DNA of 64,000 bases from Chloroflexia bacterium (GCA_036388595.1 DASVRN010000269.1:1628-65627); one strand, 5' to 3'; shown: positions 20,849 to 62,084, counted from the first letter of the stretch. Notes: generated by a model from the letters alone, not told the origin. Numbers and translations are program-made.

Positions 20849-21002
20849 CAGCACTGGGAGGGGTCTCGCATGGCTCCTCCCGCCGCTGTTCTTCCTCGCC
20901 TGGGCCGTCGCCTTCTCGTTTCCCCTGGTCCTGCACCTGGGCGACTCCGTAATCCTCTCGCGGGGCAGCGATGCGTGGCTGCACCTGTGGGACCTCTGGT
21001 GG

Positions 21003-22973
21003 GTGGACAAGGCGCTGGTGGACCTCCAGCAGAACCCCTACCAGACGACCTATCTCTACCACCCCACCGGCCTCAACCTCTATTACCACTCCCTCAATCT
21101 GCTGAACGCCCTCGTCTCGATACCGTTACAGCACCTCTTCAACCTGACCGCCGCCTTCAACCTGCTGGTGCTGGCAAACCTCACGCTCGATGGGCTGGCC
21201 GCATACTGGCTGTGCCGCGAGCGCACGGGGTCAATGGAGGCGGGGCTTGTAGGTGGCGCGCTGTTCGCCTCTACCCCGCTGCTCGGCACCTCCCTCGATT
21301 TCGGGCAGTTGGACGAGGTCACGGTCTGGTGGGTGCCGCTTTATATGCTTGCGCTATGGCGGGCGCTGGACAGTCCCGGACCGGTGTGGAAGCCGGGGGG
21401 AGGCAGGCGAGCGTCCGTCTGTGCGGGATTGTGCCTGGTGGGGGCGTCGCTGGCTACGTGGTACTTTACCGCCGGGCTGGTGGTCTTTTCGGCCTTCTTC
21501 GTGCCCCTTCACCTGCTACAAAGGGATGGTGGGGGCACCCGGCAGTACATGGCGCGGTTGTGGAACGCGGGCCTCAAGGTTGGGGTAGCGGTGGCGCTCT
21601 TCGTGGTGCTGCTGAGTCCCCTGCTCTGGGCGATGATAAATGAGCGTCTTTCAGGCGAGACCTACATGCTACCCGCGCTAAGGACCACCATCTTCAATTC
21701 GGCTGACGTGCTGGCACTCTTCGCGCCGCCCCAGGTGGAACTGCCCGAGTTGAACGCCCACAACAGCACAGTGGCGTTAGGATACATAGCTATCGTGCTG
21801 GGCGTACTGGGGCTTGTGGTGCGCCGCAACCTCGCCCTGCCCCTGGGTGTGGCGTTGCTGGCGCTTATCGTCATGTCGCTCGGCCCGGTGCTCCAGGTCG
21901 CGGGCAGCGAGACTGGCGTGCCGATGCCTTATGCCGTGCTGAACAACGTGCCGTTCATCGGTGCCTCCCGACAGCCGCTGAGGTTCCTGGCGACCGCCGG
22001 CATGGTCCTGTCGCTCCTGGGGGCATATGGGTTCGCCTGGTGGATGGGTCGCCTTCGAAGTTCCGGCTTGCGGGCGCGGGTCACGGCGGGGATACTTCTG
22101 CTCGTCGCTATAGAGCTATTCGGAGTGCCGAGGCAGCTTGCTACGACACAGGCAGGTGAAGCGGTCGATTTCTTGCGGTCGAGCGCAGAGGCCGGTGCGG
22201 TCGTTGAGGTCCCTTTCGAGAATTATTCGGCCCTGTCCCTCCTGCACCAGACCGTACACGAGCGTCCAATCGTCGGCGGCTACACCTCGCGCCACTTCCC
22301 GTACCCCTTCGCGGACGCGGCACCGGGACTTGCTCAACTCGTACGCGAAGACCCGGCCCCGATGGTGGGAGCGGATGTCCTGCTGCCCGCTGTGCCTGAG
22401 ACGGCGCGTGGGAGCCTGGAATTTTACGGCATGCGCTACGTGGTGGTGCACAAGGGTGATCTGGCGACGGGCCGCTACGGGCAGCTAGAGGCGGTATTGG
22501 AGGCGCTGTTCGGCGGCGAGACCCCGGCCTACGAGGACGCGGATGTCGCTATTTACAGGGCAGCGGGACGAGAGGTTGCGGCAGGCGAGCAGTTGCCACT
22601 CGTGGGCCTGGGGAGTGGCTGGCACAGCGTGGAGCCGGACCCGACGCACAGGTGGACCGGCAGCAACGTGACCGACGGCAACGGGCTTGTCTGGATCGGT
22701 ATCCCGCCCGCGGCCGAGGGCACTTATCGCCTGCAAATGACCGCTTACGCCTACGACAAGCCCAGGACGCTCAGCATAGAGCTAGACGGCAGGTTGTTGG
22801 CTCAGCAGGCGCTTACCCCCGCCTTCACGGAGCTGGATATCGACCTGGGTCACCTGCGTACGGGCAACCACATCCTCTTGCTGAAGGCCCACGAGCCACC
22901 CGACAGCCCGCCCGGCGACGAGCGGAGACTGGCTATCGGCACGACTCGCCTGGCTATCGTGCGACAGCCCTAG
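21003..22973 (+). CDS. Large polytopic membrane protein (about 11 TM plus a 250-aa C-terminal soluble domain), GT-C-like, homologous to the 53372-55621 gene; the true N-terminus probably lies near 20870 (see findings)
   Basis: Hydrophobicity pattern; the N-region GSDAWLHLWDLWWVDKALVDLQQNPYQTTYLYHPTGLNLYYHSLNLLNALVSIPLQ aligns with the N-region of the 749-aa protein at 53372-55621. Confidence 0.5.
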   Translation: MDKALVDLQQNPYQTTYLYHPTGLNLYYHSLNLLNALVSIPLQHLFNLTAAFNLLVLANLTLDGLAAYWLCRERTGSMEAGLVGGALFASTPLLGTSLDFGQLDEVTVWWVPLYMLALWRALDSPGPVWKPGGGRRASVCAGLCLVGASLATWYFTAGLVVFSAFFVPLHLLQRDGGGTRQYMARLWNAGLKVGVAVALFVVLLSPLLWAMINERLSGETYMLPALRTTIFNSADVLALFAPPQVELPELNAHNSTVALGYIAIVLGVLGLVVRRNLALPLGVALLALIVMSLGPVLQVAGSETGVPMPYAVLNNVPFIGASRQPLRFLATAGMVLSLLGAYGFAWWMGRLRSSGLRARVTAGILLLVAIELFGVPRQLATTQAGEAVDFLRSSAEAGAVVEVPFENYSALSLLHQTVHERPIVGGYTSRHFPYPFADAAPGLAQLVREDPAPMVGADVLLPAVPETARGSLEFYGMRYVVVHKGDLATGRYGQLEAVLEALFGGETPAYEDADVAIYRAAGREVAAGEQLPLVGLGSGWHSVEPDPTHRWTGSNVTDGNGLVWIGIPPAAEGTYRLQMTAYAYDKPRTLSIELDGRLLAQQALTPAFTELDIDLGHLRTGNHILLLKAHEPPDSPPGDERRLAIGTTRLAIVRQP

Positions 22974-24290
22974 CCCCTCGGAATGGAGGCTGCCCTCAAC
23001 CAGGCGACCTCTAGCTGCTCGGCAACCGGGCCGAGTCTAAGTCCCTCAGCGACCTTCAACCCGTTGTCCCTTACCCGGCCGTACAGGTCTGACTCGGTGA
23101 GCAGGCGGATAATTGCATCCGCTATGGCCTGGGCGCTTCGTGGGGCTACTGCCATGGTGGCTTCGTATGGGGCGAGGTAGGAGGCCGCGCCGGTGGTCTC
23201 GCTCACCACGGTGGGGGTGCCGACCGCCGCCGCTTCGAGTGCGACCCTGTGCAGCGCCTCCACTACGCTTGGAGAGGTCACTACGTCGGCCCCGGCCAGG
23301 TGCTGCCTCACGTCAGGGTGGGCCACCTGCCCGGTGAAAATCAGGTGTTGCGCCACACCCAAATCGACCGCCCTCTTGAACAGGAACTCCCGGTAGTCGC
23401 CGTAGTTCTCGGTGCTCCTCGACGGCCCGCACAGCACGAACCACGGCACCGCCCTACCCTTCGCGCGCATGGCAGAGGCCACCAGGGGTATCGCATCCAC
23501 CAGATACTCCAACCCCTTGAACGGGTGCAGGCGGCTGAGCGACATGACTACCGGGCTGGGAAGCCCGATGCCGTAACGCTCGGACAGGTGTGCGCGACTG
23601 TGCCGCCTGAACTCGTCCAGGTCAACCACCGGCGGGGGGAAGGCGTTGTCCTCCAGCACACGAGGCACCATCACGATACGCGCTCGCTCGGCCAGGCGCT
23701 CGCCCAGCAGGTACCCTATCATGAAGGGCGAGTTCACCCGTATCAGGGCCGCCCGCCGCAACGCCAGGTTCACGGCCGCGCGAGGTAGCCGGAAGCGGCG
23801 GTAGCCGTAGTCGTTCTCGGGTAGCTCGATCACGTCCGCTCCCTGTGCGTTGGCTAGGTAAGGGGTCTTGCCCGCAGCGATTGCGGCCACCGCCCCGAAG
23901 GGGTAGACCCCCTCGACGTGCAGCAGGTCGTAGCGGTGTCGCTTCAGGTGGCGGCGCAGGGCGGAGAGGAGAGTGAAGGTGTGCTCGTACTTGAGGAAGT
24001 GCCCGGCGGCCCGCCTCACAAGCCCTGTCACGCGCCCGCCGGTGGTCGCGAGGTTTACCCGGTAGGTCGTCACGCCTGAGTAGGCTGTGCGGCTGTACCT
24101 GGGAACGCCCGGCTCGTTGATCTGGGTCAGCACCTCAACGTCGTGGCCTTTCGCCTTCAGGGCCAGTATCGCCTGTTCGTGCCCCACGTTGCCCATGAGG
24201 TCGGGGCTGTACGAGCCTATGAAGTAGAGCACGCGCAGGCTGCTGGCGGCGGCCACGCTCCCCGGCCCGTGTGATGTGTCTGGTATGGTC
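22970..24290 (-). CDS. GT4-family (GT-B fold) glycosyltransferase; start at ATG 24290 just after the S-layer gene terminator
   Basis: LRVLYFIGSY N-domain and E..7..E-like C-domain region (ALHRVALEAAAVGTPTVVSETTGAASYL). Confidence 0.65.
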
Positions 24291-24310
24291 ATGGGTGCAT
24301 TATATAACAG

Positions 24311-24372: not shown

Positions 24373-26823
24373 CTACTTGGTGGCGGCCGCGCTAGCCCCG
24401 GTGAAGGGGCCGATGGCCTGTGCCAGCATCTTGGAGATCTGCCCGCGTGTCACGTCCCTGTTGGGGCGGAAGTAAGGCTTGTTGCCCGCACCGCAAGGCT
24501 CGCCCGCACCACCGCAGGCGTAGCCTCCGATGATGCCCCGGCGGGCCGACTCCTCAACGAAGCCGAAGAGCGGGCTGTTAGCGGGCACGTCCTCGAATGT
24601 GGGCGAGCCGGGCCTGTATTCGCTCCAGCCACGCGACAGCACGATCATCTTGGCGGTCTGCGCGCGAGTTACGTTGTTATTGGGCCGGAAGTAGTTGCGC
24701 CCCGAGCCGTCGCACGGCTCGTTGGGGAGGCCACACTGGTATCCGCTGATGATGCCCCTGGCCGCCGCCGTCTCCACGAAGGTGTAGAGGGGGGAACTCG
24801 CGGGCACGTCCATGAAGCTGGGCGCGCGAGGGTTCACCAGGGTACCGCCCGCGCCGAGCACCACCATCTTGCTGAGTTGCGCCCTGGTAGCCGTCGCGCC
24901 AGGCCTGAAATGTATGGTGCTATCGGGCTGGCCGTAGCCGTTGATGATGTTGCGGGCCGCGAGGTTCGCTATGTCGTTCGCGAACGGGTTGTTCGTCGGC
25001 ACGTCGGTGAAGATCGTGCTAGCCGAGCCATGGTCGATACGCACGGGCAAGAGACTGTAAAACTGGCTCGTGTTGGTCCCATCGCTGGCAACGGCATACA
25101 CCCAGTAGTCGGTGCCGTTCGGCAAGCCGCTCGTATTCCAGCCCGCCTGGCCCTGGTCGATAGGCACGTTGGCGGCGATAAGCTGGCCGTTGAAGCCCGA
25201 GTTGTTGGTGTCGTAATAGAGACTCACGGTGGCGTTGCTACTGCCCTGCACCTTGCCCCAGCGCACGAGCGTGGCGTTGTTCGCGAAAGGCTGCGACATC
25301 AGGTGGGCGCTCTGGACGCGGAAGAAGGGCAGGTTCACGGGAGGCTGCTTCTGATCGTCCTCTTCATGCGGGTCCAGGCGGAAGACCCTTATAGGACCCG
25401 ACCAGCCGTAAGAGGGCGCTCCAGGGATCTTCGGGATAGTCGCCAGGTCCACGGACATCGGTATCCAGCGGTTGTACTGGGCGTACATGCCCTCGGTTTG
25501 CACCCACTCCGACCCTGAACCCTGGTTCCAGGTAAAACGCGGGCCGAGATTGCCCTTGGAGCCGGGGTGCTGGCTGGGAGCCTGTAACCACAGTTTCACC
25601 GTCATATAACGGTAGCGGCTGGCGTCCACACTGCCACGGTCCTGCCCGTTGTAAGGGTAGAGCCAGTAGATAGAGGGGTCCTCCACCGTGGTGCCCGGCA
25701 GCGTCCTGGAAGTAGCCTGTAGATACTCGCCGTTAAAGGTAGGAGGGCCTGTGAGGTTCTCGTATAGCTGCAACTGGTTGGGGTTGGCGCCGTCCCAGAT
25801 CTGGCCCAGCCGGGCCGCCGCGAAGTCCTCGCCGCTCAGGGGGCCGGGGGCCAACACCTGGACTACGGGCGCGGTATTTACCGTGATGGGGCCGGTGGTG
25901 CTCCACTGGCCGTTTTGCTCCCCGTGGATGTAGTACGTGCCGGGGGCCACACCTGTGCGGTTCCAGGTCCAGCTACCCGCTGTGGCGCTGGTGCTGCCTA
26001 TCTGCATCTCCCTCGCATTGTGGTCGGGGGTCAGACCGAGGTAGAAATTGACCGTCGAGCTACCGTCGGGGCGGAAGGTCACATTGACGGGGGTGGAAGT
26101 ATCGGGAGCCATACGCACCCAGTCGAACTTTACGTTGTTGCCGTACATGTTCCACGGAGCGTCCATGCGGATACCCGCCACCGTGCCGAGGTTCGCCCAG
26201 TTCTGGGGTTCCGCGTTCAGGTTGGCCTCATAAATGTGCCAGCCTTGCTGCACGGTTATGAAGTCTTTGAGGTTGCAATTGCTACAGGGGGCACGCTCAC
26301 CGGGGTTCTTGAACCACCAGAGCATCATGCGCCCGGCCTGCTCGGAGTACATCCTGAAAACGAGGCGGGTGTATCGCTGGGTGGGCACGGGGTAGTTGCG
26401 GCCGTCCTTTTCGCCCATGTAGGAGAAGGTGGTGGCGAAGTTCTGCTCCACCAGCATCACGAACATTTCGGGGTTGCTTGAGGAGCCGGTGGTGGTCGCG
26501 CTCCAGATGCCGTTGCTGAGTGTAGGTTGGGTGAAGTTGTGCGGATAATCGAGGTCGTCGGGGTTGTTCATGTCCCACGGGTCGCCCTGCACCTGGGTGG
26601 CATAGTCGTCGGACTCGGGTATGGTAACGGCGCCAGGCCCAGTCAGCGTGAAGTTGCCGCCTGTGGGGTTGTTGGCGTTCTCCTCCGCCTGGGAGGCTTC
26701 TTGACCAAGGGCTGACCCGGATGCCGAGCTACCAGGAAAGAAGGCCGCGGGCAGGAGGACTAGCGCCGCCAGGACCAGCGCGCCGAGTTTGCCAATGCCA
26801 TTGATTCGTGCTGAATGCATCAT
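24373..26823 (-). CDS. Secreted 816-aa protein with N-terminal signal peptide, large W/N/G/T-rich beta-type domain and three C-terminal SLH (S-layer homology) domains; candidate S-layer (glyco)protein
   Basis: Signal MMHSARINGIGKLGALVLAALVLLPAAF; three SLH repeats FTDVPTNNPFANDIANLAARNIINGY...TRAQLSKMVV / FMDVPASSPLYTFVETAAARGIISGY...TRAQTAKMIV / FEDVPANSPLFGFVEESARRGIIGGY...TRGQISKMLA. Confidence 0.75.
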   Translation of the reverse strand: MMHSARINGIGKLGALVLAALVLLPAAFFPGSSASGSALGQEASQAEENANNPTGGNFTLTGPGAVTIPESDDYATQVQGDPWDMNNPDDLDYPHNFTQPTLSNGIWSATTTGSSSNPEMFVMLVEQNFATTFSYMGEKDGRNYPVPTQRYTRLVFRMYSEQAGRMMLWWFKNPGERAPCSNCNLKDFITVQQGWHIYEANLNAEPQNWANLGTVAGIRMDAPWNMYGNNVKFDWVRMAPDTSTPVNVTFRPDGSSTVNFYLGLTPDHNAREMQIGSTSATAGSWTWNRTGVAPGTYYIHGEQNGQWSTTGPITVNTAPVVQVLAPGPLSGEDFAAARLGQIWDGANPNQLQLYENLTGPPTFNGEYLQATSRTLPGTTVEDPSIYWLYPYNGQDRGSVDASRYRYMTVKLWLQAPSQHPGSKGNLGPRFTWNQGSGSEWVQTEGMYAQYNRWIPMSVDLATIPKIPGAPSYGWSGPIRVFRLDPHEEDDQKQPPVNLPFFRVQSAHLMSQPFANNATLVRWGKVQGSSNATVSLYYDTNNSGFNGQLIAANVPIDQGQAGWNTSGLPNGTDYWVYAVASDGTNTSQFYSLLPVRIDHGSASTIFTDVPTNNPFANDIANLAARNIINGYGQPDSTIHFRPGATATRAQLSKMVVLGAGGTLVNPRAPSFMDVPASSPLYTFVETAAARGIISGYQCGLPNEPCDGSGRNYFRPNNNVTRAQTAKMIVLSRGWSEYRPGSPTFEDVPANSPLFGFVEESARRGIIGGYACGGAGEPCGAGNKPYFRPNRDVTRGQISKMLAQAIGPFTGASAAATK

Positions 26824-27015: not shown

Positions 27016-28233
27016 TCAGGCGGCCCGGACTTCGCGGTACAACGCCTCAATCCGGCCAATTAGGTCGGCTTCGGAGTAGCGTGCCAGCGTGTCGCGGCCG
27101 CCTTCAACGAGCCGCATGCGCAGACCCGGCTCGGACAGCAGGCGAACTATGGCCTGGGCGAGCGCATGGGGGCTTTCAGGCTCAACCAGCAGGCCGTTCA
27201 CCTCGTGCCGCACCATCTCTCTGACCACGGGCAGGTCGGTAGCGATTACGGGACAACCCGCCGACATGGCCTCCAGGGGTGGCAGGCCGAAGCTCTCATA
27301 GCGGGTGGGGTAGACCAAACAGTCGGCCGAGCGCATGAGCCGCACCTTGCTCTCCTCGTCCACCTTCCCCAGCAGGACCAGGTTGTCGATGCTGCCGTTC
27401 TCGCGGCAAATGGCCTCCAGGTGCCCTGCCCTGGCGGGGTTTTGCCCGGCAAAGAGGAATGTAGTCGTGGGGCACCTGTCGAGCACCAGTGGCATAGCGT
27501 GGGCCAGGGTGTCGTAGCCCTTACGCTCCTTCAACTGGCCCAGGAAGAGTACGTGCGGCGACGGGTAGCCCGCAGACATAGACTCGCTGTACGGCACCGA
27601 TTCTATATAGGGCACGTCCACCCACAGCGGGATCATGGTTATCTTGCGCTCTCCCATACCGAGACGCTTGAGCACGCCTACCTCGTGCAGGGAAAGCGCA
27701 ATAAGGCGGTCGGCGGCGCGCAAGGGGAAGTGCATGCAGAAATTCTGCCATATAGAGAGCGGCTTCTTACCTTTCGATTTCACAAGCTCTCTAACGAGGC
27801 GTGCCGGGGTGTAGATCAGCCGTCCGGGGTACATCTTGCCGCTATAGGGGCGCTCGCGGTCGTCCACAAGGTAGGGGTCGTGGAAAGGCCCGACCACGGT
27901 AAACACGGCGGGCCGCCGCGCCGATTTGGCCCAGAGCGCCGCCTGCCAGTTAAGGGCGTTTCGCAGGTGGAACAGGTGCACCACGTCAGGGCGGAACGCG
28001 GTCAGCGCGGGGAGCAAGCTAGGTGCCAGCCAGGCTTTGTTCACGCGCACCCTGTGGACTTCGATGCCGTCCACGTTCTCGCGAGCTTCGGCGGTGATTT
28101 CCGAGTCTTCCTCGCGCAGGGTGAAGGCCGCTACGGTGTGGCCTCTAGCGACGAGGGCGCGCCCAAGCACCGCCTCCGGCCACTGGCGGAACTGCCGCGT
28201 CACCCCGGTGGTCGTGACAATCGCTACTCGCAT
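27016..28233 (-). CDS. GT4-family glycosyltransferase
   Basis: MRVAIVTTTGV N-domain; YESFGLPPLEAMSAGCPVIATDLPVVREMV. Confidence 0.75.
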   Translation of the reverse strand: MRVAIVTTTGVTRQFRQWPEAVLGRALVARGHTVAAFTLREEDSEITAEARENVDGIEVHRVRVNKAWLAPSLLPALTAFRPDVVHLFHLRNALNWQAALWAKSARRPAVFTVVGPFHDPYLVDDRERPYSGKMYPGRLIYTPARLVRELVKSKGKKPLSIWQNFCMHFPLRAADRLIALSLHEVGVLKRLGMGERKITMIPLWVDVPYIESVPYSESMSAGYPSPHVLFLGQLKERKGYDTLAHAMPLVLDRCPTTTFLFAGQNPARAGHLEAICRENGSIDNLVLLGKVDEESKVRLMRSADCLVYPTRYESFGLPPLEAMSAGCPVIATDLPVVREMVRHEVNGLLVEPESPHALAQAIVRLLSEPGLRMRLVEGGRDTLARYSEADLIGRIEALYREVRAA

Positions 28234-36501: not shown

Positions 36502-37595
36502 CCTGCCACCTCGCCGCCAACCTTCCGCGCCAGCACGAAGTACGGACCCGCCCGCCAGCTTCCAAAGAGCACCAGATCGAGCCACATTAGACGCGTGAGC
36601 AGCATCATCGCCTTGTATTCGGGGCCGCGCCTTACCAGCCGCTGCTTTACGTCGCGGCGCATAGCATCCTCTCCACCGCCGCCTGCCCCGTTCTGGCCTG
36701 GACTCGCTTGCGCCTTTCCCTTCATTCGTCGCATGGCCGATTCGGCCAGTTTCACCACCAGATTCTCGATGATGCTCTGGAATAGCCCGTTCCAGAAGAC
36801 CACCTTCTCAACCTGGAAGCCGCACTCGCACATCACCCTTTCCAGATCGGGGTAGGTCTCCAGGGCCTTGACGTGGTCCGACTTGCGGAGGCGGTCGCGA
36901 GTGTCGTCCAATACGCCACGTTCGCCAAGCCAGCGGGAGAGCCGCCGGACGGTCCGCACGATGAAGTCCAGGCGGGAACCCTCGCGGGTGTTAGAGAAGA
37001 GGAAGAGCCGCCCGGTGCCATCCAGCACGCGGTTGGCCTCGCTGAGGAAGGCACGAATGTCTTCCAGCGGCAGGTGCTCCAGTACGTCGATGGACATAGC
37101 GGCGGTGAAGGTGCCATCGGGGAACGGCAGCACGCGGGCATCGGACAGGCACAGGTCGAGGCCCTGCAACGCCTCCCGTGCGAAAAGCGGGGCCGGATCG
37201 ACGCCCACCGCCCACTCGACCGTCTTCCTGTTCCAGAAGACGAACTTGCCGTTACCGCAGCCTAACTCAATCAGGCGGTCCTGGGCACTGGGCCTGAGCA
37301 TCTCGAGGATGGCACGTTGGCGAACGGCAGCCCCCAGGAGCGGTATGCCGATACGCTTGTAGTCGAGGGCCGCGTCGAACTCATCTCCGTGCGAAACGTA
37401 GAGGGAGGTGTGCTGCCCGCGCTCCGGGGGCATCAGCTCGATGTAACCTGCCGGGTTCATGCGGTAGCGGCTCTCACAGCGCGGACACTGAAGCGCACTC
37501 CTCCAACGGCGGGTGAGTGAGGTGCCGGTGCCCCAGCGTTGTATGCACTCCGGGTTGACGCAGCAAACGGTCCGGAGCAGTCTGTCAGAGATCAA
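36498..37595 (-). CDS. Class I SAM-dependent methyltransferase with an N-terminal Cys4 zinc-ribbon
   Basis: CCVNPEC...CPRCESRY zinc ribbon; motif I LIELGCGNGKF; motif region SIDVLEHLP. Confidence 0.7.
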   Translation of the reverse strand: MISDRLLRTVCCVNPECIQRWGTGTSLTRRWRSALQCPRCESRYRMNPAGYIELMPPERGQHTSLYVSHGDEFDAALDYKRIGIPLLGAAVRQRAILEMLRPSAQDRLIELGCGNGKFVFWNRKTVEWAVGVDPAPLFAREALQGLDLCLSDARVLPFPDGTFTAAMSIDVLEHLPLEDIRAFLSEANRVLDGTGRLFLFSNTREGSRLDFIVRTVRRLSRWLGERGVLDDTRDRLRKSDHVKALETYPDLERVMCECGFQVEKVVFWNGLFQSIIENLVVKLAESAMRRMKGKAQASPGQNGAGGGGEDAMRRDVKQRLVRRGPEYKAMMLLTRLMWLDLVLFGSWRAGPYFVLARKVGGEVAG

Positions 37596-53375: not shown

Positions 53376-55621
53376 CGCGCATTGCTCCCCGTGCTGCCTC
53401 CAGTGTTGTGCTTGTAGAGCGTGACGAACTCGTTGGACCAGACCTGTTGGCCCGCCGAGAAGCCGTACTGCGCCGGGTCCTCTCCGGTCCAGAGTAGCGC
53501 GAAGTCGGGGGTCGGTGCCGGTTGCGGTGCCTGTATGGGCTGCCCGAAGCTAAGCCGCGACTCGCCGTACTGGAGGTGGTCGCGCAGGTAGAAAGCAAGT
53601 GCGGCCATGTAGCCCCCGTACACAGTCTCAGCGCCCTCGCGTGCGGGGTCGTTCTCAGGGTTCGCCAACAGCAACGAGGCACCTGCGGGTATTAGTCCGG
53701 CTAGCTCCTGTGCGTCGTCCGGCCCGGTGAGGCGGTAGACGCGGTCGGGGCCGAAGTCCTGCACCAACTCGAAATCGTCTACAACTTTGCCTTCTGGAGC
53801 GGTCGAGCGCCACTTGAAGTCCTCACGTTGCGGCCCGCTCAGGTTCTCCAGGTGCGCCACTACGTACTCGACACCCAAAGCTCTCAAGGCACCCAGGCTG
53901 CGCGGGCAAGGGAAGCAGCGCTCGGTCTCCAGCACCAGGGCCGAGTACGCGAAGGGGCGAATGGTGGTGCTGCCGTTGATGGTGTTGTGCCAGTGGTACA
54001 CGCTGTAATACTGGTACATGTTTGCCATCTCGACGCTGGGGTCGCCTCGTTTGTAGTGGGTCATCGGGTATTCCAGGATGACGCTCTGGGGTTGCGCGGC
54101 AAGCCACTTGTAGACGGCCGGTACCGCGTCTCTAGTGCCCACCGGCTGCATGCTGATGGGCGCGCTCCAACTTTCGGCTACGGGCACAAACGCAACCAGC
54201 ATCGCCACAACCGGCACCAACCTGCGCGCCACTGCTTGCCCCTTTGTCCTCGCCAACAGGTACCTCAACAGGAATAACGCGCCTATACCGGCGAGCACCG
54301 CTAAAGCCAGCGCCGTGACAATCCCGATCCTGGTGACCACGCGCATGCTCTGGAAGCCGGGTACCCACTCGTGCAGAAACAGGTAGGGCAGGGGCATCAC
54401 ACGCTGAATGGCCGCCGGGTCGTAGTTGGAGGGCGCATACCAGGGTTGCAGGCTCGGCCCAAGGGATAACACGGCGGAAATAATTGCCACGATTGCATAG
54501 AACCCGGCATGAAGCCTGAGTGAACCTTTTACGACGCCGTCCGGTACTGACACTGCTCTCCTGCGAAACGCGAGAAGCAAGCCGGCAATCGCCAGCCCCA
54601 GCACGAAGAAACCAGGGAAGGCAGCGCGCTCGATGGCCCAGGGGCCGGGGTCGGCAAAGGGGGCCAGTAACGACCTGTAGGCGGGGCTGCCCTTGAACAC
54701 GGCCAGGAAACTGGCAAGGGTGTTAGAGAAGCGTTCGGCCTCAAAGATGCTGCGGCTGAACTCGAATTGGCCCTGGTCGCGCACGTAGGGGATGGCAATC
54801 GGCAGGATGAACACCAGTGAGCCTGCGAGCCCTGCACCTGCTTTTACCAGGAAGGTGAAGGAGAACACTCTTCGTTGTGCAAGGGCGTAGTAGAGGACGA
54901 ACAGCCCAAGCAGCATCGCGGTGTAGAAGGCCAGGTAATGTCCCGACAGTGCCTGCAAAGTGAAGAAGCCACCCAGCGCCAGCGCCCAGCCCCACTCCCG
55001 CGTCCAGAGCAGCTTGTAGGCGGCCAGCAGCACCAGCGGCATCCATTGGGTGTTATCCAGGGTGATGTGGGGCAGGTGATTTATGCGATAGAAGCAGAAC
55101 GCGAACGCCGTGCCCGCCACGATCCCCGCCCAACTGCTCCCGGTCAATTCGCGCACCAGCAGCCACGTGGCCCATCCCGACAGTACGAAGCTCAGGAAGA
55201 GTATCAGGTTGTGGCTGAGCACCGGGTTGCCGAGCAGGAAGTAGAAGGGGGCCGACAGCACGGCCTGGGCGAACGAAAGCTCGTCAAAGGTGAGCGTTCC
55301 ACGGAAGGGGTACATGATATTGCTGTTGAAGAGGTCGAACGGCTGGGTCGCCAGCGCGTGCGCCTGCCACGCCATCGCCCACACGCTGTAAAGTGGATCG
55401 CCCTTGTCCATGACGAAGCCGCCTAATTGCGGGAACATCGGCCAGGTGGCGACGATGGTGAGCAGCGTGAAAGCGCCGAGCACGGCCAGGTGCGGCAGCA
55501 GTCTCGACATCCTTGAGGGTCGTGCGGGTACGGTAAGGTCAGCCCGCTCCGGAGCCACCTCTTCAGCCGGCTCGGGCTCGACCACGCTTGTAGCCGCGAA
55601 TTGCAGACGACCTACTTTCAT
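53372..55621 (-). CDS. 749-aa polytopic membrane protein homologous to the 21003-22973 product; GT-C-like, possibly YfhO/PTPS-related-type
   Basis: N-region GDPLYSVWAMAWQAHALATQPFDLFNSNIMYPFRGTLTFDELSFAQAVL aligns with the 21003 gene; more than 12 TM plus C-terminal soluble domain. Confidence 0.4.
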   Translation of the reverse strand: MKVGRLQFAATSVVEPEPAEEVAPERADLTVPARPSRMSRLLPHLAVLGAFTLLTIVATWPMFPQLGGFVMDKGDPLYSVWAMAWQAHALATQPFDLFNSNIMYPFRGTLTFDELSFAQAVLSAPFYFLLGNPVLSHNLILFLSFVLSGWATWLLVRELTGSSWAGIVAGTAFAFCFYRINHLPHITLDNTQWMPLVLLAAYKLLWTREWGWALALGGFFTLQALSGHYLAFYTAMLLGLFVLYYALAQRRVFSFTFLVKAGAGLAGSLVFILPIAIPYVRDQGQFEFSRSIFEAERFSNTLASFLAVFKGSPAYRSLLAPFADPGPWAIERAAFPGFFVLGLAIAGLLLAFRRRAVSVPDGVVKGSLRLHAGFYAIVAIISAVLSLGPSLQPWYAPSNYDPAAIQRVMPLPYLFLHEWVPGFQSMRVVTRIGIVTALALAVLAGIGALFLLRYLLARTKGQAVARRLVPVVAMLVAFVPVAESWSAPISMQPVGTRDAVPAVYKWLAAQPQSVILEYPMTHYKRGDPSVEMANMYQYYSVYHWHNTINGSTTIRPFAYSALVLETERCFPCPRSLGALRALGVEYVVAHLENLSGPQREDFKWRSTAPEGKVVDDFELVQDFGPDRVYRLTGPDDAQELAGLIPAGASLLLANPENDPAREGAETVYGGYMAALAFYLRDHLQYGESRLSFGQPIQAPQPAPTPDFALLWTGEDPAQYGFSAGQQVWSNEFVTLYKHNTGGSTGSNAR

Positions 55622-56853
55622 GCGCCCTTTCGACCTTCCAGGCGTCCCGCTACGTGTCTAAGCACTTTCAACAAAGCGTCGGCACCCTTCTCCCACTGGA
55701 ACTGGCTGTGCACGAAGTTGGACCCGGCACTTCCCATCGCCCGCGCCCTCTCCAGGTCCGACAGCAGGTCCGCCGTTGCACTCCCCAGGGCACCGGGCGT
55801 GGCCGGTACGAGGTAGCCGCTACTGCCGTGCTGCACCGTGTCACAGGGGCCGCCCTCGTTCACCGACACAACCGGCAGTCCAAGCCCCAGCGCTTCGATC
55901 ACCGACAGGCCGAAGCTCTCCTCCCGCCCGGTGTGCATGTAGACGTTACCCAGGGCGTAGTGTGCGGGTAGTTCTTCCTCCGGCACCGCCCCTGTGAAGA
56001 TGACATCCCGCCCCGCGACCATGCCTAACGACTCGGCCAACGTCTCCAGCGATGCACGTTCAGGCCCGCCGCCCACGATCAATCCTACCGTGCCCGGTAC
56101 CTGCTCTGTGGCATGATGCACAGCGCGGATGAAGAGGTCTATGCGCTTCCGAGGGTGCAGGTGGTTTACGGTGACCACCACACGCTTGCCATGCAAACCG
56201 TACCGCTCGCGGAGGCTTTCAAGCGTTGCCGGGTCAGGTTCGCGGAAGTCCATGCCGTGCTCGATCACGACCGCCTTGCGCTTGTAGGCGTTCCAAATGC
56301 GCCTTGAGCCATAGGGGCTGTTGGAAAGCACCCGGTGAGCCGAGCGCACCATAGCCTGGTCGAGCCGCCGGTAGACACGAAAGGCTGGTGACATGAGCCT
56401 GCCCAGCGTGCCAAGCCGCGAGACAATATCGCCTGTGTCGCTATAGATGAAGCGCGGCGGCTCGAAGCAGAAATAAAGCACAGGCACGCGCCTACGCAAT
56501 AGTGGCAGCCATATCCGCCGTGCGAACCACATAGCGGGGACGCTTGGCGGTCCAAAGAAGACCACTCCGCTCAACTTCTTGCGCGGGATGCCCAGGGCCA
56601 GCGCCGGACCGAGCGCGTACTCAGCGGCAGCGTCGATATAGTGGTTGCCCGTGAGTTGGAGCGGCATACCCGACTCGATCAGCCCCACTCCCTCACCGAG
56701 CGCGGGAAGGCATTCGTCGGCAATGTGGTGGGTGAGCAATACGACCTGCTCGCGCCCCTCCAATGCCTTAGCGGTGTAGCCTGCCAGCTTCAGTATCAGC
56801 CGCTCGGCCCCCGTAAGCTTCTTTAGCTGAGGGTAGAAAAAGACAAGCGCCAA
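55618..56853 (-). CDS. GT4-family glycosyltransferase
   Basis: REESFGLSVIEALGLGLPVVSVNEGGPCDTV. Confidence 0.75.
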   Translation of the reverse strand: MALVFFYPQLKKLTGAERLILKLAGYTAKALEGREQVVLLTHHIADECLPALGEGVGLIESGMPLQLTGNHYIDAAAEYALGPALALGIPRKKLSGVVFFGPPSVPAMWFARRIWLPLLRRRVPVLYFCFEPPRFIYSDTGDIVSRLGTLGRLMSPAFRVYRRLDQAMVRSAHRVLSNSPYGSRRIWNAYKRKAVVIEHGMDFREPDPATLESLRERYGLHGKRVVVTVNHLHPRKRIDLFIRAVHHATEQVPGTVGLIVGGGPERASLETLAESLGMVAGRDVIFTGAVPEEELPAHYALGNVYMHTGREESFGLSVIEALGLGLPVVSVNEGGPCDTVQHGSSGYLVPATPGALGSATADLLSDLERARAMGSAGSNFVHSQFQWEKGADALLKVLRHVAGRLEGRKGA

Positions 56854-57048: not shown

Positions 57049-57059
57049 TCCTCCGCCGT

Positions 57060-58652
57060 CTACCGGGGTACGTATATATTCTCAACGTTGCGCTGATCCA
57101 GTTTATAATTATCACGCAGGGCCTGCAAGATGCCGGGCGAAACGTCCCCCGCGCCGGGATTGGGGTCAAAGATATTGATGCGTAAGATCACCTGCGCGAA
57201 GCCTTTGCGCCTTATCTCGGCCACAAGCTTGCTCTCGTCCCAGCGCCCGTATTGAGTGGCATGCGTCTGCGTATAAGGGTCGGTCGTCCAGAGCCGCTTG
57301 CCTGTAGTTAGCAGCAGTCCCACGTTGTCCGAGTAGGCGGGGCCGCCGTTGTTGGTCACGTACTGGAAGATCTTGTGCATCTCGCCCGCTATCTCAGGGT
57401 GCATCGGCCTGAAGGAACGCTCCAGCCAGGCCGGGTTCGAGAAGAGCGAGGGTAGAGCCAATACTACCACGAGAGCTACCCCCACCGCCGCGACCCTTAC
57501 GCCCAGGTACTCCGCACGCCGGGTCAGCCCCGCCGCCATGCCCAGCCCCAACCCTCCCGCAGCCGCCCAGTCGAGCAGGTGGTTGTGATTACCGCCTAGC
57601 GTGCCGGTGCCTATCGACACGAAGACGCTCATGCCCAGGTGGGCCAGCAGCAGGATAGCACCCCGGTGCAGCGTGTCCAGCCTGGCGCTCCGTTGAGACA
57701 CCCGCACCCACAGCGAGCGCAGGCCCACTAGCAGCAAAGCAACCATACCGGGCACAAGGAACACGGCATAGGTGGTAGCAAAGTTGCTGACGTACAGTGC
57801 GAAACGGTCGGCCATCCAGGGCAGGTCGTGCACGGGGCTGGGCAGGCCAGGCAACTCGAAGGTGCCCTGGTGGTAGTAATAGCCGCCGTCGGTCATCCAG
57901 GTGAGGATGGCACTCGGAACGAACGCACCCAGGGCGTACGCGCCCAAGAAGCCCAGACCCATACGAGGCCGCATTACCAGCAGCCAGAATATGCCCGCAG
58001 CAGCCGCGGCAATCGCTGTCTGCTTGGTGTAGAAGGCGGCCAAGAAAAACAGCAGCGCCCACCACGCCTGCCGCTCCGGCTTGGCTAGCAGCCACCACAG
58101 CCCCGCGAAACCCAGCGCCACCGCCGTCATGTCGGGCTTGACCAGGCTGCCCCAGAAGGTGACCACCCCCAGCGACCACCAGGCAGCAGCGCCTATTGCA
58201 CCCGCCAGCCTGTCCCTCGTAAGCGCCACCACGATGCCGAATATCGCCACGCCCACGAAGATAGTCGCCAGTATCGAGATCGTGCGCCCGACCTTGAAGG
58301 TAGGCTCGCTCCCCGCCAGGTGCTGACCCGGCAACGCTAGCAGGTAGAACAGTGGCGGATAAGGGGCGGAGATGAAGAGGTCGGGGCCGGGCACATCAAA
58401 AATAGGTACCCCCTGGTCCAGCAGCATCGTCTCGGCAACTATCATGCCTTCCGACTCGTCAAACTGGAACGGGTAAGCCCACATCTGCGCCGAGGTAGCA
58501 GCCGAAAAGGCGCTCTTGGCGACCAAACCTACCAGCAGAAGCACCAGCACACCGGTAAGCGCCCAGCTTGCGAGCCGCCACACCTCTGGCCTGTCCGGCA
58601 CCGAAAAGTGCCGGTTACTCTGTATTTCCTCTGGATTCCTTACCGTTGGCAT
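57060..58652 (-). CDS. GT-C-fold polytopic membrane glycosyltransferase-like protein (PMT_2/ArnT-like)
   Basis: First loop [16 protein letters not shown] acidic DE motif; about 11 TM; C-terminal soluble domain. Confidence 0.45.
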
Positions 58653-60817
58653 CCGATGACCTTTGTTACTTGCACCCCGACCAATCTTGGATCGCTGCCC
58701 GACACGATGAAGGAGTTCACATCTAGCTCAAGCGGGCTCTTTGCGTCGTTTGGAAGAAGGATGAACTCCGAAGTAGTCCAGTCGGCGGAGTTTGGAAGGG
58801 ATATGTCGTCAGAAGATCGTCGGTTATACGGACCGACGCTCGACGTTAGAGTCGCTATGGCTTGAGGCAGTCCCGATGGCCGCCAACCGTTCCACTCCAG
58901 CGCACATACTCCCGAGCTCAGACCTCGGACCTCCGCAGTGTCCTTGCTCCAGCGGAAGGCTCGTCCATCGCCATCTCTTTCGGGGCCGTGGAACCCTCTC
59001 ACATACCCTACATCAAGACCGCTACCCACGTCGATGCTTTGCACCGCTTCAGGGCGCAGGTGGTCCCAGGCCCAGCGCAACGCCTCGTCTCCCGCCACCT
59101 GGACCACCCTCGCATTGAAGAACGAGCGAGCATCATCGTGGTTGCCCCGCATGCTCGCGGCCTGACCTCGCAGAATGGGTGGCTCGTAGCGGTCCTCCGG
59201 CTCGTCCTGCCTGAGCACCGACATGGCTTCATCGGGCCTACCTTGCTGTAGGAGGGCGGCTGCCAGTCCGTAGCGAGTGTCGCCCACGTTCATGTCGGCT
59301 GCGCGGTAGCTATTCACCGCAAAGTCAGAGTTCCCTGACATGAGCCATCGTTCGCCCTCTCGGTAGGGTGCCTGGCGCTCCCACGCCTGCATGCCGCTTA
59401 GCGTGTCACCGAACGGCACGTTCAGCACCACGACCGCAAATATCGCCAACGTGGCAGCCACAGAAGCTAGACGTGTGACTAAATGGGTAGACCGAAGTGC
59501 TTGCAGGCGCGGCAGAGCCGTAATGCCCATCGCAGCCCACGGCAGCAACGACGCTACCACCGGCATGCGAAACCGTGTGACCGCGAAAAAGACGAACGAC
59601 ATGACCACCCAGAGTAGCACCCACCCAAGCGTAAGCCACTTCAGCGACGTAGGCTTCGACAAGGCCAGCCCCACGACCGCCAGCAGCAGAATAGCCACGT
59701 ACAGCAAGTTGTCGAACACGAACAAGAATCCGAGGTGCCATGACGGGACCCTGCCCGAAGGGTACCCGCGCACCGCGTTCTCCTCGGCGCTGAGTAGCGG
59801 CTTCCACAGGTCCAGGGACTCCTTCAGTCCCTTGCCCACGAAGACAGCCGGGTCTGTGACAATAATGTCCCAGGCGCGCGACAAGGCGTAGTCCTGCCGC
59901 TCGCCCTGGCCCTGGATGCGCCGAAGTTCATCCTGCATTCTCGGCTCGTCACGCACTCCCAGGCTGGCTAGCCACAGATTGTATCCACCTGTCGTGTCAA
60001 CCGGGATGAAGCGATGATAGGCAGCGTAGTTGCGTGCGGTCCAGGGCAGCAAGGTAGCCAGCGCGACCAGCACCAACAGCGCCGCCTGGACGAACCGGCG
60101 TCGGAACGTCCAGGCACGCGGAAGGCTAAGCAGCAACCAGAGCGCCGCGATGAAGACGAACAGGAGTGCGGTGGACCGGGTCAGAGTAGCGCAGCCCAGG
60201 AGCACGCCCGCACCCACCAGCCAAAAATAGGCCCGCCGGGTTGAGCCTTCCACCACCAGCCCCAGCCGCGCCTTCCACAGCGCCAGCAGAGCGAATCCGA
60301 ACAGCAGCAGGAATAGCGTCTCTGAGACCAACAGACCAGCAAAGAGCGCGAACGGCACATAGAGAACGCCCAGCGCCAGCGTCCATTGTGCCGCCGCCCT
60401 GCCCCTCACCTCTGCCGCCAACCACCCAAACGGGAGGAGCGATACAGCACTGATTAGCGACTGCGCCACCAGCACGGCCAGGTAGTTGTAGCTGCCGCCT
60501 CCCAGTGAGAACAGGCCACCCAGGAACAACACGTACACGGGTGGCCGGACCCAGATGAAGTCGTTGTAGAAGGCGAAGCCTCGTCCCGCGGCCAGCATAT
60601 GGGCCGCGCTGAAGTACTCGCGCTCGTCAATGACGAAATCGAGAGGGGTGTGCCGGTCCGTGTGTAGGGCGGCATTGTAGAGCACCCGGAAGGCGAACGC
60701 GGCTACTAGCAACGCCCAGGTAAGGGGGTCTTTCCAGAACGAATAGGAGGGTGCGCTGTCGGCGGGCGCGTCGTTCAATTGCAGGGTGACGGTGGTACCG
60801 TTACTGTGCGCCTTCAA
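58640..60817 (-). CDS. GT-C-fold (GT39/GT83-like) membrane glycosyltransferase-like protein with C-terminal TPR-like region
   Basis: First loop FVIDEREYFSAAHMLAAGRGFAF (DExxY motif of the ArnT/PMT family); TPR-like LAAALLQQGRPDEAMSVL... Confidence 0.5.
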   Translation of the reverse strand: MKAHSNGTTVTLQLNDAPADSAPSYSFWKDPLTWALLVAAFAFRVLYNAALHTDRHTPLDFVIDEREYFSAAHMLAAGRGFAFYNDFIWVRPPVYVLFLGGLFSLGGGSYNYLAVLVAQSLISAVSLLPFGWLAAEVRGRAAAQWTLALGVLYVPFALFAGLLVSETLFLLLFGFALLALWKARLGLVVEGSTRRAYFWLVGAGVLLGCATLTRSTALLFVFIAALWLLLSLPRAWTFRRRFVQAALLVLVALATLLPWTARNYAAYHRFIPVDTTGGYNLWLASLGVRDEPRMQDELRRIQGQGERQDYALSRAWDIIVTDPAVFVGKGLKESLDLWKPLLSAEENAVRGYPSGRVPSWHLGFLFVFDNLLYVAILLLAVVGLALSKPTSLKWLTLGWVLLWVVMSFVFFAVTRFRMPVVASLLPWAAMGITALPRLQALRSTHLVTRLASVAATLAIFAVVVLNVPFGDTLSGMQAWERQAPYREGERWLMSGNSDFAVNSYRAADMNVGDTRYGLAAALLQQGRPDEAMSVLRQDEPEDRYEPPILRGQAASMRGNHDDARSFFNARVVQVAGDEALRWAWDHLRPEAVQSIDVGSGLDVGYVRGFHGPERDGDGRAFRWSKDTAEVRGLSSGVCALEWNGWRPSGLPQAIATLTSSVGPYNRRSSDDISLPNSADWTTSEFILLPNDAKSPLELDVNSFIVSGSDPRLVGVQVTKVIGCQR

Positions 60818-62084
60818 TCTGGTTTCCGGCGGTCTCAGCGTGCCGCTTGCTCTTGCGCCTGCGACCGAAGGCCGCGGTATAGAGTTTCTCGAAGGTGCGG
60901 GCGGTGGTATCCCAGTTGAGATCGTCCTCCACGCGGCGGCGGCTCGCCTCCCCGTATTGCTGGCGCAGGTCGGGTGCCCTCAGCAGCAGGTTGATGGCCG
61001 CCGAAAGCTCGCCCGGCTGCTTCTCCGGCACCACCAGGCCGTTCTCGCCGTCCTTCACCGCCAGCGGTATGCCCGCCACGTTGGTCGCCACCACCGGGCG
61101 GGCCGAAGCCATCGCCTCCAGCAGCGTGTTGGGCAGGCCATCGACGTTCCCCTGCTGGTCCACCACCGAAGGCAGGACAAAGAGGTCGCAGCCACTGAAG
61201 TAGAGCGGCAGTTTGTCGCGCGACACCCACCCCGGCATGATAACCGACTTCTCGACGCCCAACTGCTTCACCAGCGACACCAGCTTGCTTTCGAGGTCGC
61301 CGCCCCCGGCCAGCACGATTTTAGCATTGGGGTGCTCGCGCAGCACGGCAGGCACGGCGCGTATCAGGTACTCGAAACCCTTCTTGTAAACCATGCGCCC
61401 CACCGCGAAGATGACAATCGCATCCTCCGGCAAGCCGAGTTCCTTGCGCAGCAGCGGCCCGGCACCTTCGATCCTCTTGAACTGGCTGGGGTCCACGCCA
61501 TAAGGCACGAGGTGGCACCGGTTGGCGGGAGCGCCTATCCGCATGGCGCGCTGGCGCAGGTCGTCGCTGGGCGCGGTAATAGAGTGTGCTGCCCTGAAGA
61601 CCCTGCGCGCCACTGAGGATATGAGGCGACTGTGCTCCGCGATGAAGACGTCCGAACCATGCAGGCTGACCACCAGTGGGAGCCTTCGGAGCCGCGCCAC
61701 CAGCGCCGCCACCGGGCCGTTGGGCACCACCCAGTGAGCGTGCATGATATCGAACTTGATTTCACGAGTAAGCTGGAGGAGCGACAGGAGGCTGCTGGCG
61801 AACACGACCGGCGTAAGGGGGAAGATAGCGCCTTTCACCCGTACGTCGGCCTCTAGCGCCTCCGCGTAGCCCCAGATGTTGAGGTGCCGTAGCGGGGCGT
61901 ACTTGAAGAAATGCAGGTGCACGCCCTTCTCCACAGGCTCGCGCTTGAGGTCGGGGTGATAGGGGGCGAGTACGTGTACTTCGTTGCCCCGCGCCGCGAT
62001 GCTGGCCGCTATCGACTCGATGAACGGTGCGGTAACGTCTCCTTCGTACTTGGGATAGGAGCTTGTTACCATGAGGATCTTCAT
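60801..62084 (-). CDS. GT4-family glycosyltransferase
   Basis: MKILMVTSSYPKYEGDVTAPFI N-domain; GLPNTLLEAMASARPVVATNVAGIPLAV. Confidence 0.8.
   Translation of the reverse strand: MKILMVTSSYPKYEGDVTAPFIESIAASIAARGNEVHVLAPYHPDLKREPVEKGVHLHFFKYAPLRHLNIWGYAEALEADVRVKGAIFPLTPVVFASSLLSLLQLTREIKFDIMHAHWVVPNGPVAALVARLRRLPLVVSLHGSDVFIAEHSRLISSVARRVFRAAHSITAPSDDLRQRAMRIGAPANRCHLVPYGVDPSQFKRIEGAGPLLRKELGLPEDAIVIFAVGRMVYKKGFEYLIRAVPAVLREHPNAKIVLAGGGDLESKLVSLVKQLGVEKSVIMPGWVSRDKLPLYFSGCDLFVLPSVVDQQGNVDGLPNTLLEAMASARPVVATNVAGIPLAVKDGENGLVVPEKQPGELSAAINLLLRAPDLRQQYGEASRRRVEDDLNWDTTARTFEKLYTAAFGRRRKSKRHAETAGNQIEGAQ

Follow-up and report, generated by a model that had tools for sequence, protein, structure and literature searches.

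A conserved 41-kb gene cluster with a probable role in envelope glycan assembly and an array of GT-C and GT-C-like enzymes in uncultured Chloroflexia

Analysis of a 64,000-nucleotide stretch of Chloroflexia bacterium DNA (GCA_036388595.1, DASVRN010000269.1:1628-65627; hereafter the window) confirmed a genuine gene cluster of about 41 kb that is kept in an uncultured soil Chloroflexia lineage. The cluster carries genes for nine family 4 glycosyltransferases (GT4; G1 to G9), eleven polytopic membrane proteins (M1 to M11), three S-adenosylmethionine (SAM) methyltransferases (MT1 to MT3) and a flippase (F), together with a gene for a secreted protein with SLH domains (Table 1). Loci for the assembly of lipid-linked envelope glycans are a known kind of system. 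New are the gathering of eleven assigned or candidate GT-C glycosyltransferase genes in one array, a GT-C family and a widespread accessory domain that both lack curated models, and the conservation of the locus in a lineage whose envelope chemistry is uncharacterised. Judged by its gene content, the locus probably works as an assembly line in two compartments, making a lipid-linked, partly O-methylated heteroglycan of the cell envelope. The product is most likely a core polymer anchored to the wall or the membrane, which we favor over a strain-variable antigen.

Membrane enzymes and their shared domain

Hydropathy scanning located the eleven polytopic proteins, which the original prediction had called GT-C-like. 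The evidence speaks for GT-C-type enzymes and not for transporters. This assignment stands for M3, M5, M6, M7, M8, M10 and M11; by sequence comparison M2 is a probable GT-C enzyme, and M1, M4 and M9 are likely, although not proven, to be GT-C enzymes as well. Conserved acidic residues directly follow the first core transmembrane (TM) helix in every polytopic family. The DE-type first-loop motifs pointed out earlier are genuine and conserved, as SDEIQY in M3, DExEY in M11 and FQFDESEG in M10. Pfam matches above threshold were obtained for M3 (PMT_2) and M4 (DUF2079) only, with sub-threshold PMT_2 or YfhO matches for M2, M9 and M11 and no Pfam match for M1, M5-M8 and M10. Sequence searches of the PDB left the M8-family profile, M3, M4 and M9 unmatched and returned a TPR match only for M11.

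M5, M6, M7 and M8 are paralogs (blastp; hhalign, 100% among the four), with M7 and M8 sharing 47% identity. An AlphaFold2 model of M8, computed from a 48-sequence alignment, reached a pLDDT of 91.3 and a pTM of 0.91. Its structural matches were STT3B (score 23.9), AglB (23.4), ALG12 (23.3) and ArnT (20.4), and further matches were Pmt4 (20.2), PglB (19.3), AftA (18.8) and AftD (18.2). The domain order of the family is unusual, with TM1 followed by a beta-sandwich (residues ~35-175), three more TM helices and the GT-C core. Within the first outer loop of the M8 core, R291, P298 and D304 are invariant, and H308 is invariant in the closer homologs and nearly so overall. The predicted fold and the acidic residue conserved in the first loop outside the membrane place M5-M8 among the GT-C enzymes. 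Given the confident GT-C model and no match in Pfam, NCBIfam or PDB sequence searches, these proteins appear to form a GT-C family new to curated models.

M10, M3 and M11 each combined a GT-C fold or a PMT_2 match above threshold with a DE-type loop-1 motif. In M10, FQFDESEG is invariant just after TM1, and the AlphaFold2 model (pLDDT 92.8) retrieved ArnT first in Foldseek (5ezm, E 4.7e-6), then STT3, DPY19, ALG12 and Pmt4. M10 homologs with 35-49% identity contain PF13231 and are annotated as GT39. M3 scored 41.1 bits with PMT_2 against a cut-off of 26.1, and its SDEIQY motif lies after TM1. For M11, PMT_2 scored 18.8 bits in the window copy and 26.2 and 45.6 bits in the orthologs of two related loci (L012 and L028, respectively); M11 also has TPR matches, and its orthologs retain the TPR region.

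The remaining four proteins were connected to GT-C enzymes mainly through profile comparisons. M2 had a sub-threshold PMT_2 match (22.7 bits) and an archaeo_STT3 match (E 1.9e-5), its orthologs had no Pfam match, and it aligned with M11 over 605 columns (hhalign, 97.8%). M4 matched DUF2079 (PF09852) with 192.1 bits, a family which we take to be GT-C from its Pfam clan; it conserves Y61-D62-x-x-D65-x-E67 after TM1 and aligned with the GT-C core of M8 at 83% (hhalign). M9 scored 27.4 bits with YfhO against a cut-off of 28.5, with 24.1 bits for its ortholog in L010. M1 aligned with M9 at 99.8% (hhalign) and is tied to GT-C enzymes through M9 alone. The same comparison linked M9 with M10 (84-89%), M10 with M8 (96.6%) and M11 with M10 (92.5%).

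An oligosaccharyltransferase reading of M2, M5 and M8 was rejected, because the WWDxG motif of these enzymes is absent; the relaxed pattern W[WYF]DxG did not occur in any of M1-M11. M8 ends in TM helices, and the C-terminal periplasmic domain that oligosaccharyltransferases have is missing from M5-M8. With NCBIfam, the archaeo_STT3 model scored 16-23 bits against the membrane proteins of the window, compared with a cut-off of 450.

The N-terminal beta-sandwich of M5-M8 proved homologous to the C-termini of M1, M2 and M11 (blastp, hhalign). The homologous region spans residues 537-656 in M1, and hhalign gave 97.1% for the M2 C-terminus against M5 and 98.8% for the M11 C-terminus against M8. It was counted in eight of the eleven membrane enzymes, and Table 1 lists seven copies. 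The domain comprises ~140 residues; a G and an RW are invariant, and a D-x-R-x-LG motif lies close to the end of the domain. Topology places it outside the membrane, since it comes after TM1 in proteins with a basic N-terminus, and its modelled structure had CBM-like (carbohydrate-binding-module-like) matches. Isolated segments searched against Pfam up to E 10 returned noise only. A profile of the seven copies was then run against 1.84 billion proteins, matching 4323 cluster representatives at E <=1e-3 and 781 at E <=1e-10. The domain usually lay at positions 30-180 in proteins of 650-700 residues or at the C-terminus in proteins of 800-1000 residues. Among 40 sampled matches it co-occurred with PMT_2 (16), YfhO (2), GT87 (2), DUF6541 (2), GT22 (1) and a sulfatase domain (1). 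The beta-sandwich is a CBM-like domain that widely accompanies bacterial GT-C enzymes, has no family model and is a candidate new domain family. Separately, the first half of the profile (~13-89) matched giant proteins of 1436-3681 residues 18-33 times each, reflecting either tandem half-domain repeats or a compositional artefact.

Gene content, layout and conservation

Pfam bore out all nine predicted GT4 genes, each far above its cut-offs. The Glycos_transf_1 C-terminal domain was found in all nine proteins and an N-terminal domain model in seven, with G6 and G8 just below the cut-off for the latter. Glycos_transf_1 scores were 90.5 bits for G1 (with Glyco_trans_4_4 at 61 bits), 123 bits for G3 (with Glyco_transf_4 at 87.6 bits), 82.5 bits for G4, 89.8 bits for G6, 152.2 bits for G7, 111.1 bits for G8 and 141.5 bits for G9. 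Glyco_trans_1_4 scored 124.5 bits for G2, whose orthologs are 70-74% identical, and 81.3 bits for G5. The top NCBIfam match of G9 was TuaC (152 bits against a cut-off of 550), and the GT4 enzymes gave weak NCBIfam matches to exopolysaccharide (EPS)/XrtA-associated glycosyltransferase families. As anticipated, no known-pathway equivalog emerged, with NCBIfam matches of the GT4, methyltransferase, SLH and membrane proteins all generic and far below cut-offs. Pfam scans of the window also agreed that it holds no GT2 gene and no priming phosphoglycosyltransferase, and they found neither a pyruvyltransferase nor an LCP gene.

The three SAM methyltransferases (Methyltransf_11/25) were likewise supported by Pfam, with Methyltransf_11 scores of 54 bits for MT1, 75 bits for MT2 and 89.9 bits for MT3; NCBIfam matches of MT2 were generic only. 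A Trm112-like protein had also been proposed. No separate gene for it was found; its CxxC...CxxC stretch is the N-terminus of MT1 and has no Pfam support. In the related locus L038, MT1 and G5 orthologs are fused into one methyltransferase-GT4 protein of 677 residues (1337-3370 of ERZ25039495 contig_1827), which connects at least one methyltransferase with the transfer of a sugar. The small DUF971 protein was recovered with GBBH-like_N (82 bits) and is kept in synteny.

F is the Wzx-like flippase that had been expected. The window copy has ~13 TM segments and a weak Polysacc_synt_3 match (24 bits against a cut-off of 23). Its orthologs (60-86% identity) match PF01943, PF13440 and PF03023 and are annotated as oligosaccharide flippase. 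F thus combines the 12-14 TM segments and the Polysacc_synt/MurJ-type Pfam matches of the MOP flippase superfamily. In L038, a TMEM260_N-type GT-C gene lies between F and G2, and F is apparently frameshifted.

The gene map was drawn from six-frame open reading frames (ORFs), the hydropathy scan and Pfam. Every gene of the locus lies on the minus strand except M1. The 25 genes originally claimed from 62084 down to 27016 were recounted as 23, and 25 is reached on this strand only when the SLH gene and G1 are included. The tight packing described earlier was reproduced, with 4-nt overlaps at seven junctions (33984/33987, 39133/39136, 41453/41456, 44434/44437, 47188/47191, 53372/53375 and 55618/55621). 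Two further gene pairs overlap by 13-17 nt, F and G2 abut, and the other junctions are mostly below 90 nt; a gap of 206 nt separates G8 from M10 (56854-57059). Scans of the locus for promoters and terminators gave counts equal to those of shuffled sequence and are therefore uninformative on operon structure. The best sigma-70-like site of the locus, at 37685-37656 on the minus strand (10/12 positions, extended -10 TG), is a possible internal promoter; it falls within the 86 nt that separate M3 from MT1.

Several gene borders were revised. The left border proposed at 20870 stems from a spurious ORF that lies in a different frame, and the M1 frame is open from 20799. No ATG, GTG or TTG codon occurs in M1 between the stop at 20796 and position 21003. 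The first canonical start is GTG 21003, and the TM1 helix and an HLWDLWW loop are encoded upstream of it. The M1 ortholog of L033 (718 residues) aligns from ~20886, and hpt and M1 overlap by 4 nt in that locus. The M1 start is likely CTG 20832, overlapping the end of hpt. The longest ORFs extend past the real starts of G4, G5, M6 and M7; G1 orthologs align from residue ~24-32 and G4 orthologs from ~59-63.

Table 1. Genes of the locus, flanking genes and copies of the shared beta-sandwich in the window
Feature	Position	Strand	Description
tilS	18642-20210	+	flank
hpt	20207-20848	+	flank
M1	20832..22973	+	YfhO-like polytopic protein, C-terminal beta-sandwich; start uncertain
G1	22970..24292	-	GT4; longest ORF 22970-24331
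SLH protein	24373..26823	-	secreted, 816 aa, three C-terminal SLH domains
G2	27016..28233	-	GT4
F	28234..29829	-	MOP-superfamily oligosaccharide flippase, Wzx-like
M2	29906..32698	-	930 aa, PMT_2-like GT-C candidate, C-terminal beta-sandwich
G3	32743..33987	-	GT4
G4	33984..35321	-	GT4; longest ORF to 35474, likely start ATG 35321
G5	35314..36501	-	GT4; longest ORF to 36585, likely start GTG 36501 or 36495
MT1	36498..37595	-	class-I SAM methyltransferase, N-terminal CxxC...CxxC stretch
M3	37682..39136	-	PMT_2-family GT-C
G6	39133..40335	-	GT4
G7	40311..41456	-	GT4
MT2	41453..42460	-	class-I SAM methyltransferase; start uncertain
DUF971 protein	42397..42759	-	small protein, GBBH-like_N (PF06155)
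M4	42812..44437	-	DUF2079 polytopic protein, GT-C candidate
MT3	44434..45210	-	class-I SAM methyltransferase
M5	45215..47191	-	putative new GT-C family member
M6	47188..49239	-	same family as M5; longest ORF to 49350
M7	49226..51295	-	same family as M5; longest ORF to 51448
M8	51315..53375	-	same family as M5; modelled representative
M9	53372..55621	-	YfhO-like polytopic protein, GT-C candidate
G8	55618..56853	-	GT4
M10	57060..58652	-	divergent PMT_2-type GT-C, invariant FQFDESEG loop
M11	58640..60817	-	PMT_2-type GT-C, then TPR, then C-terminal beta-sandwich; conserved gene pair with M10
G9	60801..62084	-	GT4; opens the array
Cytochrome c	62178-62540	-	flank
ileS 3' end (DUF5915)	63381-63989	-	flank
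Beta-sandwich copies	52836-53285, 50753-51199, 48646-49068, 46652-47074, 29909-30406, 58643-59065	-
Beta-sandwich copy, M1	22590-22970	+

Homologs of M8, M10 and F were found only in uncultured Chloroflexia or Chloroflexota metagenome-assembled genomes (MAGs) and metagenomes, nearly all labelled hypothetical; the window itself matches JGI 3300034236 and SRR10953936. In 29 genome loci the order cytochrome c-G9-M11-M10-G8-M9-[M5-M8 paralogs]-MT3-M4-DUF971-MT2-G7-G6-M3 is kept down to 45-60% identity, with two to four M5-M8 paralogs per locus. Contigs with an F ortholog keep the order tilS-hpt-(M1)-G1-[slot]-G2-F-M2-G3-G4-G5-MT1-M3-G6, in which M1 is optional among relatives and the slot between G2 and G1 is of variable content. 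On the same contigs, glycan genes are 55-74% identical, compared with 77-81% for hpt and 44-48% for tilS. Content and order are therefore kept at housekeeping-like divergence, next to tilS-hpt, which makes a core polymer the most likely product. As judged from these contigs, the locus behaves as a vertically inherited core function and not as a serotype locus. A horizontally acquired island was rejected because the GC content of the locus (0.61-0.66) equals that of its flanks and synteny with tilS-hpt is conserved.

The same evidence bears on whether this is an exopolysaccharide, capsule or O-antigen-like locus that varies between strains and follows the Wzx/Wzy scheme, a reading which we regard as highly improbable. 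A Wzx-like flippase, many GT4 genes and the weak EPS/XrtA-associated matches would suit such a locus. However, genes for Wzy, a chain-length regulator, a priming transferase and sugar-nucleotide synthesis are lacking, gene content is conserved and not hypervariable, and GC content shows no departure from the flanks. Apart from the flippase, no component of the Wzx/Wzy class (Bac_transf, Glycos_transf_4, Wzy or Wzz) was detected in the window.

The SLH gene and flanking DNA

The secreted protein encoded between G2 and G1 ends in three SLH stretches, as predicted (Pfam SLH, 82.2 bits). It has a signal-peptide-like N-terminus, TRAQ/TRGQ-type motifs in the SLH domains and 12 N-x-S/T sequons, 6 of which lie within residues 516-584 just before the SLH domains. 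Its N-terminal 600 residues had no family match in Pfam or NCBIfam beyond a faint Kre9_KNH Ig-like match. The original prediction described the locus as wrapped around this SLH-domain (candidate S-layer) gene, which is correct for the window but does not hold as a core property. An SLH ortholog occupies the slot in L032 (48%) and L035 (50%), the latter with an additional TPR protein. The slot is empty in L033, L036 and L038, it holds a peptidase and a DHH-CBS protein in JGI 3300047160, and L034 has no SLH gene near F, G2 and G1. On this comparison, the SLH gene is variable cargo of the G2/G1 slot, and its product is only a candidate S-layer protein or glycan acceptor.

The variable slot weighs on the possibility of ALG-like protein glycosylation, in which a lipid-linked oligosaccharide would be built inside by GT4 enzymes, flipped and extended outside by GT-C enzymes, one of which, for example M11 or M2, would transfer single sugars or the entire glycan to the SLH protein and other surface proteins. 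An SLH gene lies inside the locus in three contexts (the window, L032 and L035), its product is rich in sequons in front of the SLH domains, and the best structural matches of M8 are STT3B, AglB and ALG12. M3, M10 and M11 fall in PMT_2, a family named for protein mannosyltransferases, and M11 has a TPR domain, as do the eukaryotic TMTC protein O-mannosyltransferases. Nevertheless, glycan genes are conserved in the five related contexts where the slot lacks an SLH gene, all eleven membrane proteins lack WWDxG, and M5-M8 do not have the C-terminal domain noted above. Pfam gave no match of the Wzy_C/PglL O-oligosaccharyltransferase type, and PMT_2 also includes lipid- and glycan-directed enzymes such as ArnT. 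We consider this alternative unlikely.

Alternatively, the locus could make a secondary cell-wall polymer that anchors SLH-domain proteins, which generally require a wall polymer ligand. The adjacent SLH gene and the TRAQ/TRGQ-type motifs of its product would fit, yet the gene is dispensable from the locus in relatives. The window contains no CsaB-type pyruvyltransferase (PF04230), no TagO/TagA-type initiation enzyme and no LCP ligase, and to our knowledge no known pathway of this kind has an array of GT-C enzymes. This reading is quite improbable, and membership in the class of SLH-anchoring polymers was rejected on the absence of CsaB and TagO/TagA-type functions from the window.

The surrounding DNA was also surveyed. 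The 20 kb upstream of the locus hold unrelated housekeeping genes. Two tRNA-Met (CAT) genes (16257-16331 and 18451-18523, plus strand) flank an M3-family oligopeptidase gene (16375-18306) upstream of tilS; one of them may be tRNA-Ile2, because tilS modifies the CAT-anticodon tRNA-Ile2. A protein of 966 residues with weak GH39/Glyco_hydro_cc-type matches is encoded 13 kb upstream (4441-7341, plus strand) and has no evident glycan relation. On the other side, 840 bp between the cytochrome c gene and the ileS 3' end (62541-63380) contain no convincing ORF and no Rfam match at the gathering threshold, and GC content is lower there (0.58 in the last 2 kb).

Proposed pathway, known systems and meaning

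GT4 enzymes use nucleotide sugars at the cytoplasmic face, where SAM-dependent methylation also takes place. MOP flippases move lipid-linked oligosaccharides, and GT-C enzymes take their sugars from polyprenyl-phosphate-linked donors at the outer face. In the proposed pathway, up to nine retaining GT-B/GT4 enzymes would build an oligosaccharide from nucleotide sugars on a lipid acceptor at the cytoplasmic face, where the three methyltransferases would modify it. The MOP/Wzx-type flippase F would carry this intermediate over the membrane. Outside, up to eleven assigned or candidate GT-C enzymes, with the fold modelled for M8 and M10 and with conserved loop motifs, would extend, branch or transfer the glycan with polyprenyl-phosphate sugars supplied by enzymes encoded elsewhere. 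The CBM-like beta-sandwich modules may hold on to the chain as it grows, a role proposed for the lectin-like modules of EmbC and AftD.

One comparison of logic is with the mycobacterial and corynebacterial pathways for phosphatidylinositol mannosides, lipomannan (LM), lipoarabinomannan (LAM) and arabinogalactan (AG). These pathways use the GT4 enzymes PimA and PimB', the GT-C enzymes PimE, MptA-C, EmbA-C and AftA-D and the GT2 enzyme Ppm1. Both systems would place cytoplasmic GT4 steps before many extracytoplasmic GT-C steps, include GT-C enzymes with lectin-like or CBM modules, leave the donor synthase to be encoded elsewhere and make a core, lineage-wide polymer. The resemblance to LM/LAM that had been suggested survives at the level of logic only. 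As a claim of membership it fails, since Pfam and NCBIfam gave no GT87 (PF09594), Arabinose_trans/Emb or Aft match and no PimA or PimB equivalog, which leaves similarity at the level of the fold. The locus also differs in belonging to another phylum, in forming one co-directional array and not scattered genes, and in including a MOP flippase and three methyltransferases. CBM-bearing GT-C enzymes are already known from EmbC (PMC3044687) and AftD (bioRxiv 10.1101/2019.12.22.885152). The module of the locus is a different, unmodelled domain, which in M5-M8 is inserted after an extra N-terminal TM helix.

M8 is structurally nearer to STT3, AglB, ALG12 and ArnT than to the mycobacterial enzymes. 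The eukaryotic and archaeal ALG pathway with STT3/AglB, which follows the same assembly logic, is an equally good analogy, since the structural similarity of the new GT-C family to STT3, AglB, ALG12 and ArnT is no weaker than that to AftA/AftD. Unlike that pathway, the locus has no WWDxG motif, no oligosaccharyltransferase C-terminal domain and no ALG family Pfam match. Enzymes of the ArnT/PMT_2 type (GT83/GT39-like) resemble M3 and the M10 and M11 orthologs, which carry PMT_2, and ArnT is the best structural match of M10; M9 and M1 resemble YfhO-type GT-C enzymes. M5-M8 differ from both types in having four extra TM helices and a CBM-like insert before the GT-C core.

A polyprenyl-phosphate-sugar synthase (GT2) is usually encoded next to the GT-C enzyme that it serves, and in L040 (8646-11689) the gene immediately upstream of an M10 homolog with 35% identity is a GT2 gene. 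This arrangement recalls the three-component systems of GT2, small flippase and GT-C enzyme (PMC11127046), which show how each GT-C enzyme could be supplied. In the present locus, the GT2 and GtrA-like partners are not included, and eleven GT-C and GT-C-like enzymes occur together with nine GT4 enzymes and a MOP flippase. As in the Paenibacillus and Geobacillus slg clusters and SLH-polymer systems, an SLH surface protein adjoins glycosyltransferases and methyltransferases. Unlike those clusters, the window lacks WsaP-type priming, rml genes, an ABC exporter, a Wzy_C-type oligosaccharyltransferase and CsaB, and its SLH gene is variable cargo. Literature searches on DUF2079, on GT-C enzymes in Chloroflexota and on Chloroflexus wall polysaccharide with O-methyl sugars found nothing relevant.

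Several observations weigh against a single assembly line for one heteroglycan. The window holds no priming enzyme, GT2 polyprenyl-phosphate-sugar synthase, ligase (LCP) or polymerase (Wzy). The sugars, linkages, donors, lipid carrier and final acceptor are not readable from sequence, and the lineage has no cultured relative whose chemistry could be compared. The GT-C calls for M1, M2, M4 and M9 are drawn solely from sub-threshold or profile-level matches, and the methyltransferase substrates could be lipids. Furthermore, related loci carry parts of the array on their own: L035 has F-G2-SLH-G1 apart from the remaining genes, an isolated M11-M10 pair occurs in a more distant Chloroflexia MAG (L039, 7818-11587; 38% and 45% identity), and the set in L037 is reduced to G2-like, M5-like, DUF2079 and F genes. 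The locus is modular, and one locus therefore need not mean one product.

This modularity raises the possibility, which we hold to be real although doubtful, that several independent modules at one site (M11-M10, the M5-M8 paralogs, F-G2-G1 and the M3/G6/G7 group) make two or more envelope glycoconjugates. Besides the three divergent loci, the variation of the M5-M8 paralog count from 2 to 4, the 206-nt gap and the promoter-like site would agree with it. By contrast, the full order is kept across many MAGs at 45-60% identity, the seven 4-nt overlaps run across module borders, there is a single flippase, and the beta-sandwich is common to the modules. A single two-compartment assembly line remains the preferred reading, and the biological claim stays inferential because the host is uncultured.

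Herein, the locus offers a concrete, conserved candidate gene set for an envelope polymer in a soil Chloroflexia lineage. The M5-M8 GT-C family and the CBM-like domain can both be converted to family models and tested biochemically. Microscopy has shown envelope layers in Chloroflexota, which lack LPS (lipopolysaccharide) and BAM genes, and the layers have no biosynthetic genes assigned to them (PMC13319060). More tentatively, and with the odds against it, the locus may encode the main lineage-wide outer glycopolymer or lipoglycan, a LAM/AG-like "second skin" made by an unprecedented array of eleven GT-C enzymes. If so, M5-M8 would stand as a new GT-C family and the beta-sandwich as a new, widespread accessory domain with which bacterial GT-C enzymes bind glycans, and the second-skin polymer could underlie the layered, diderm-looking, LPS- and BAM-free envelopes of Chloroflexota (PMC13319060).

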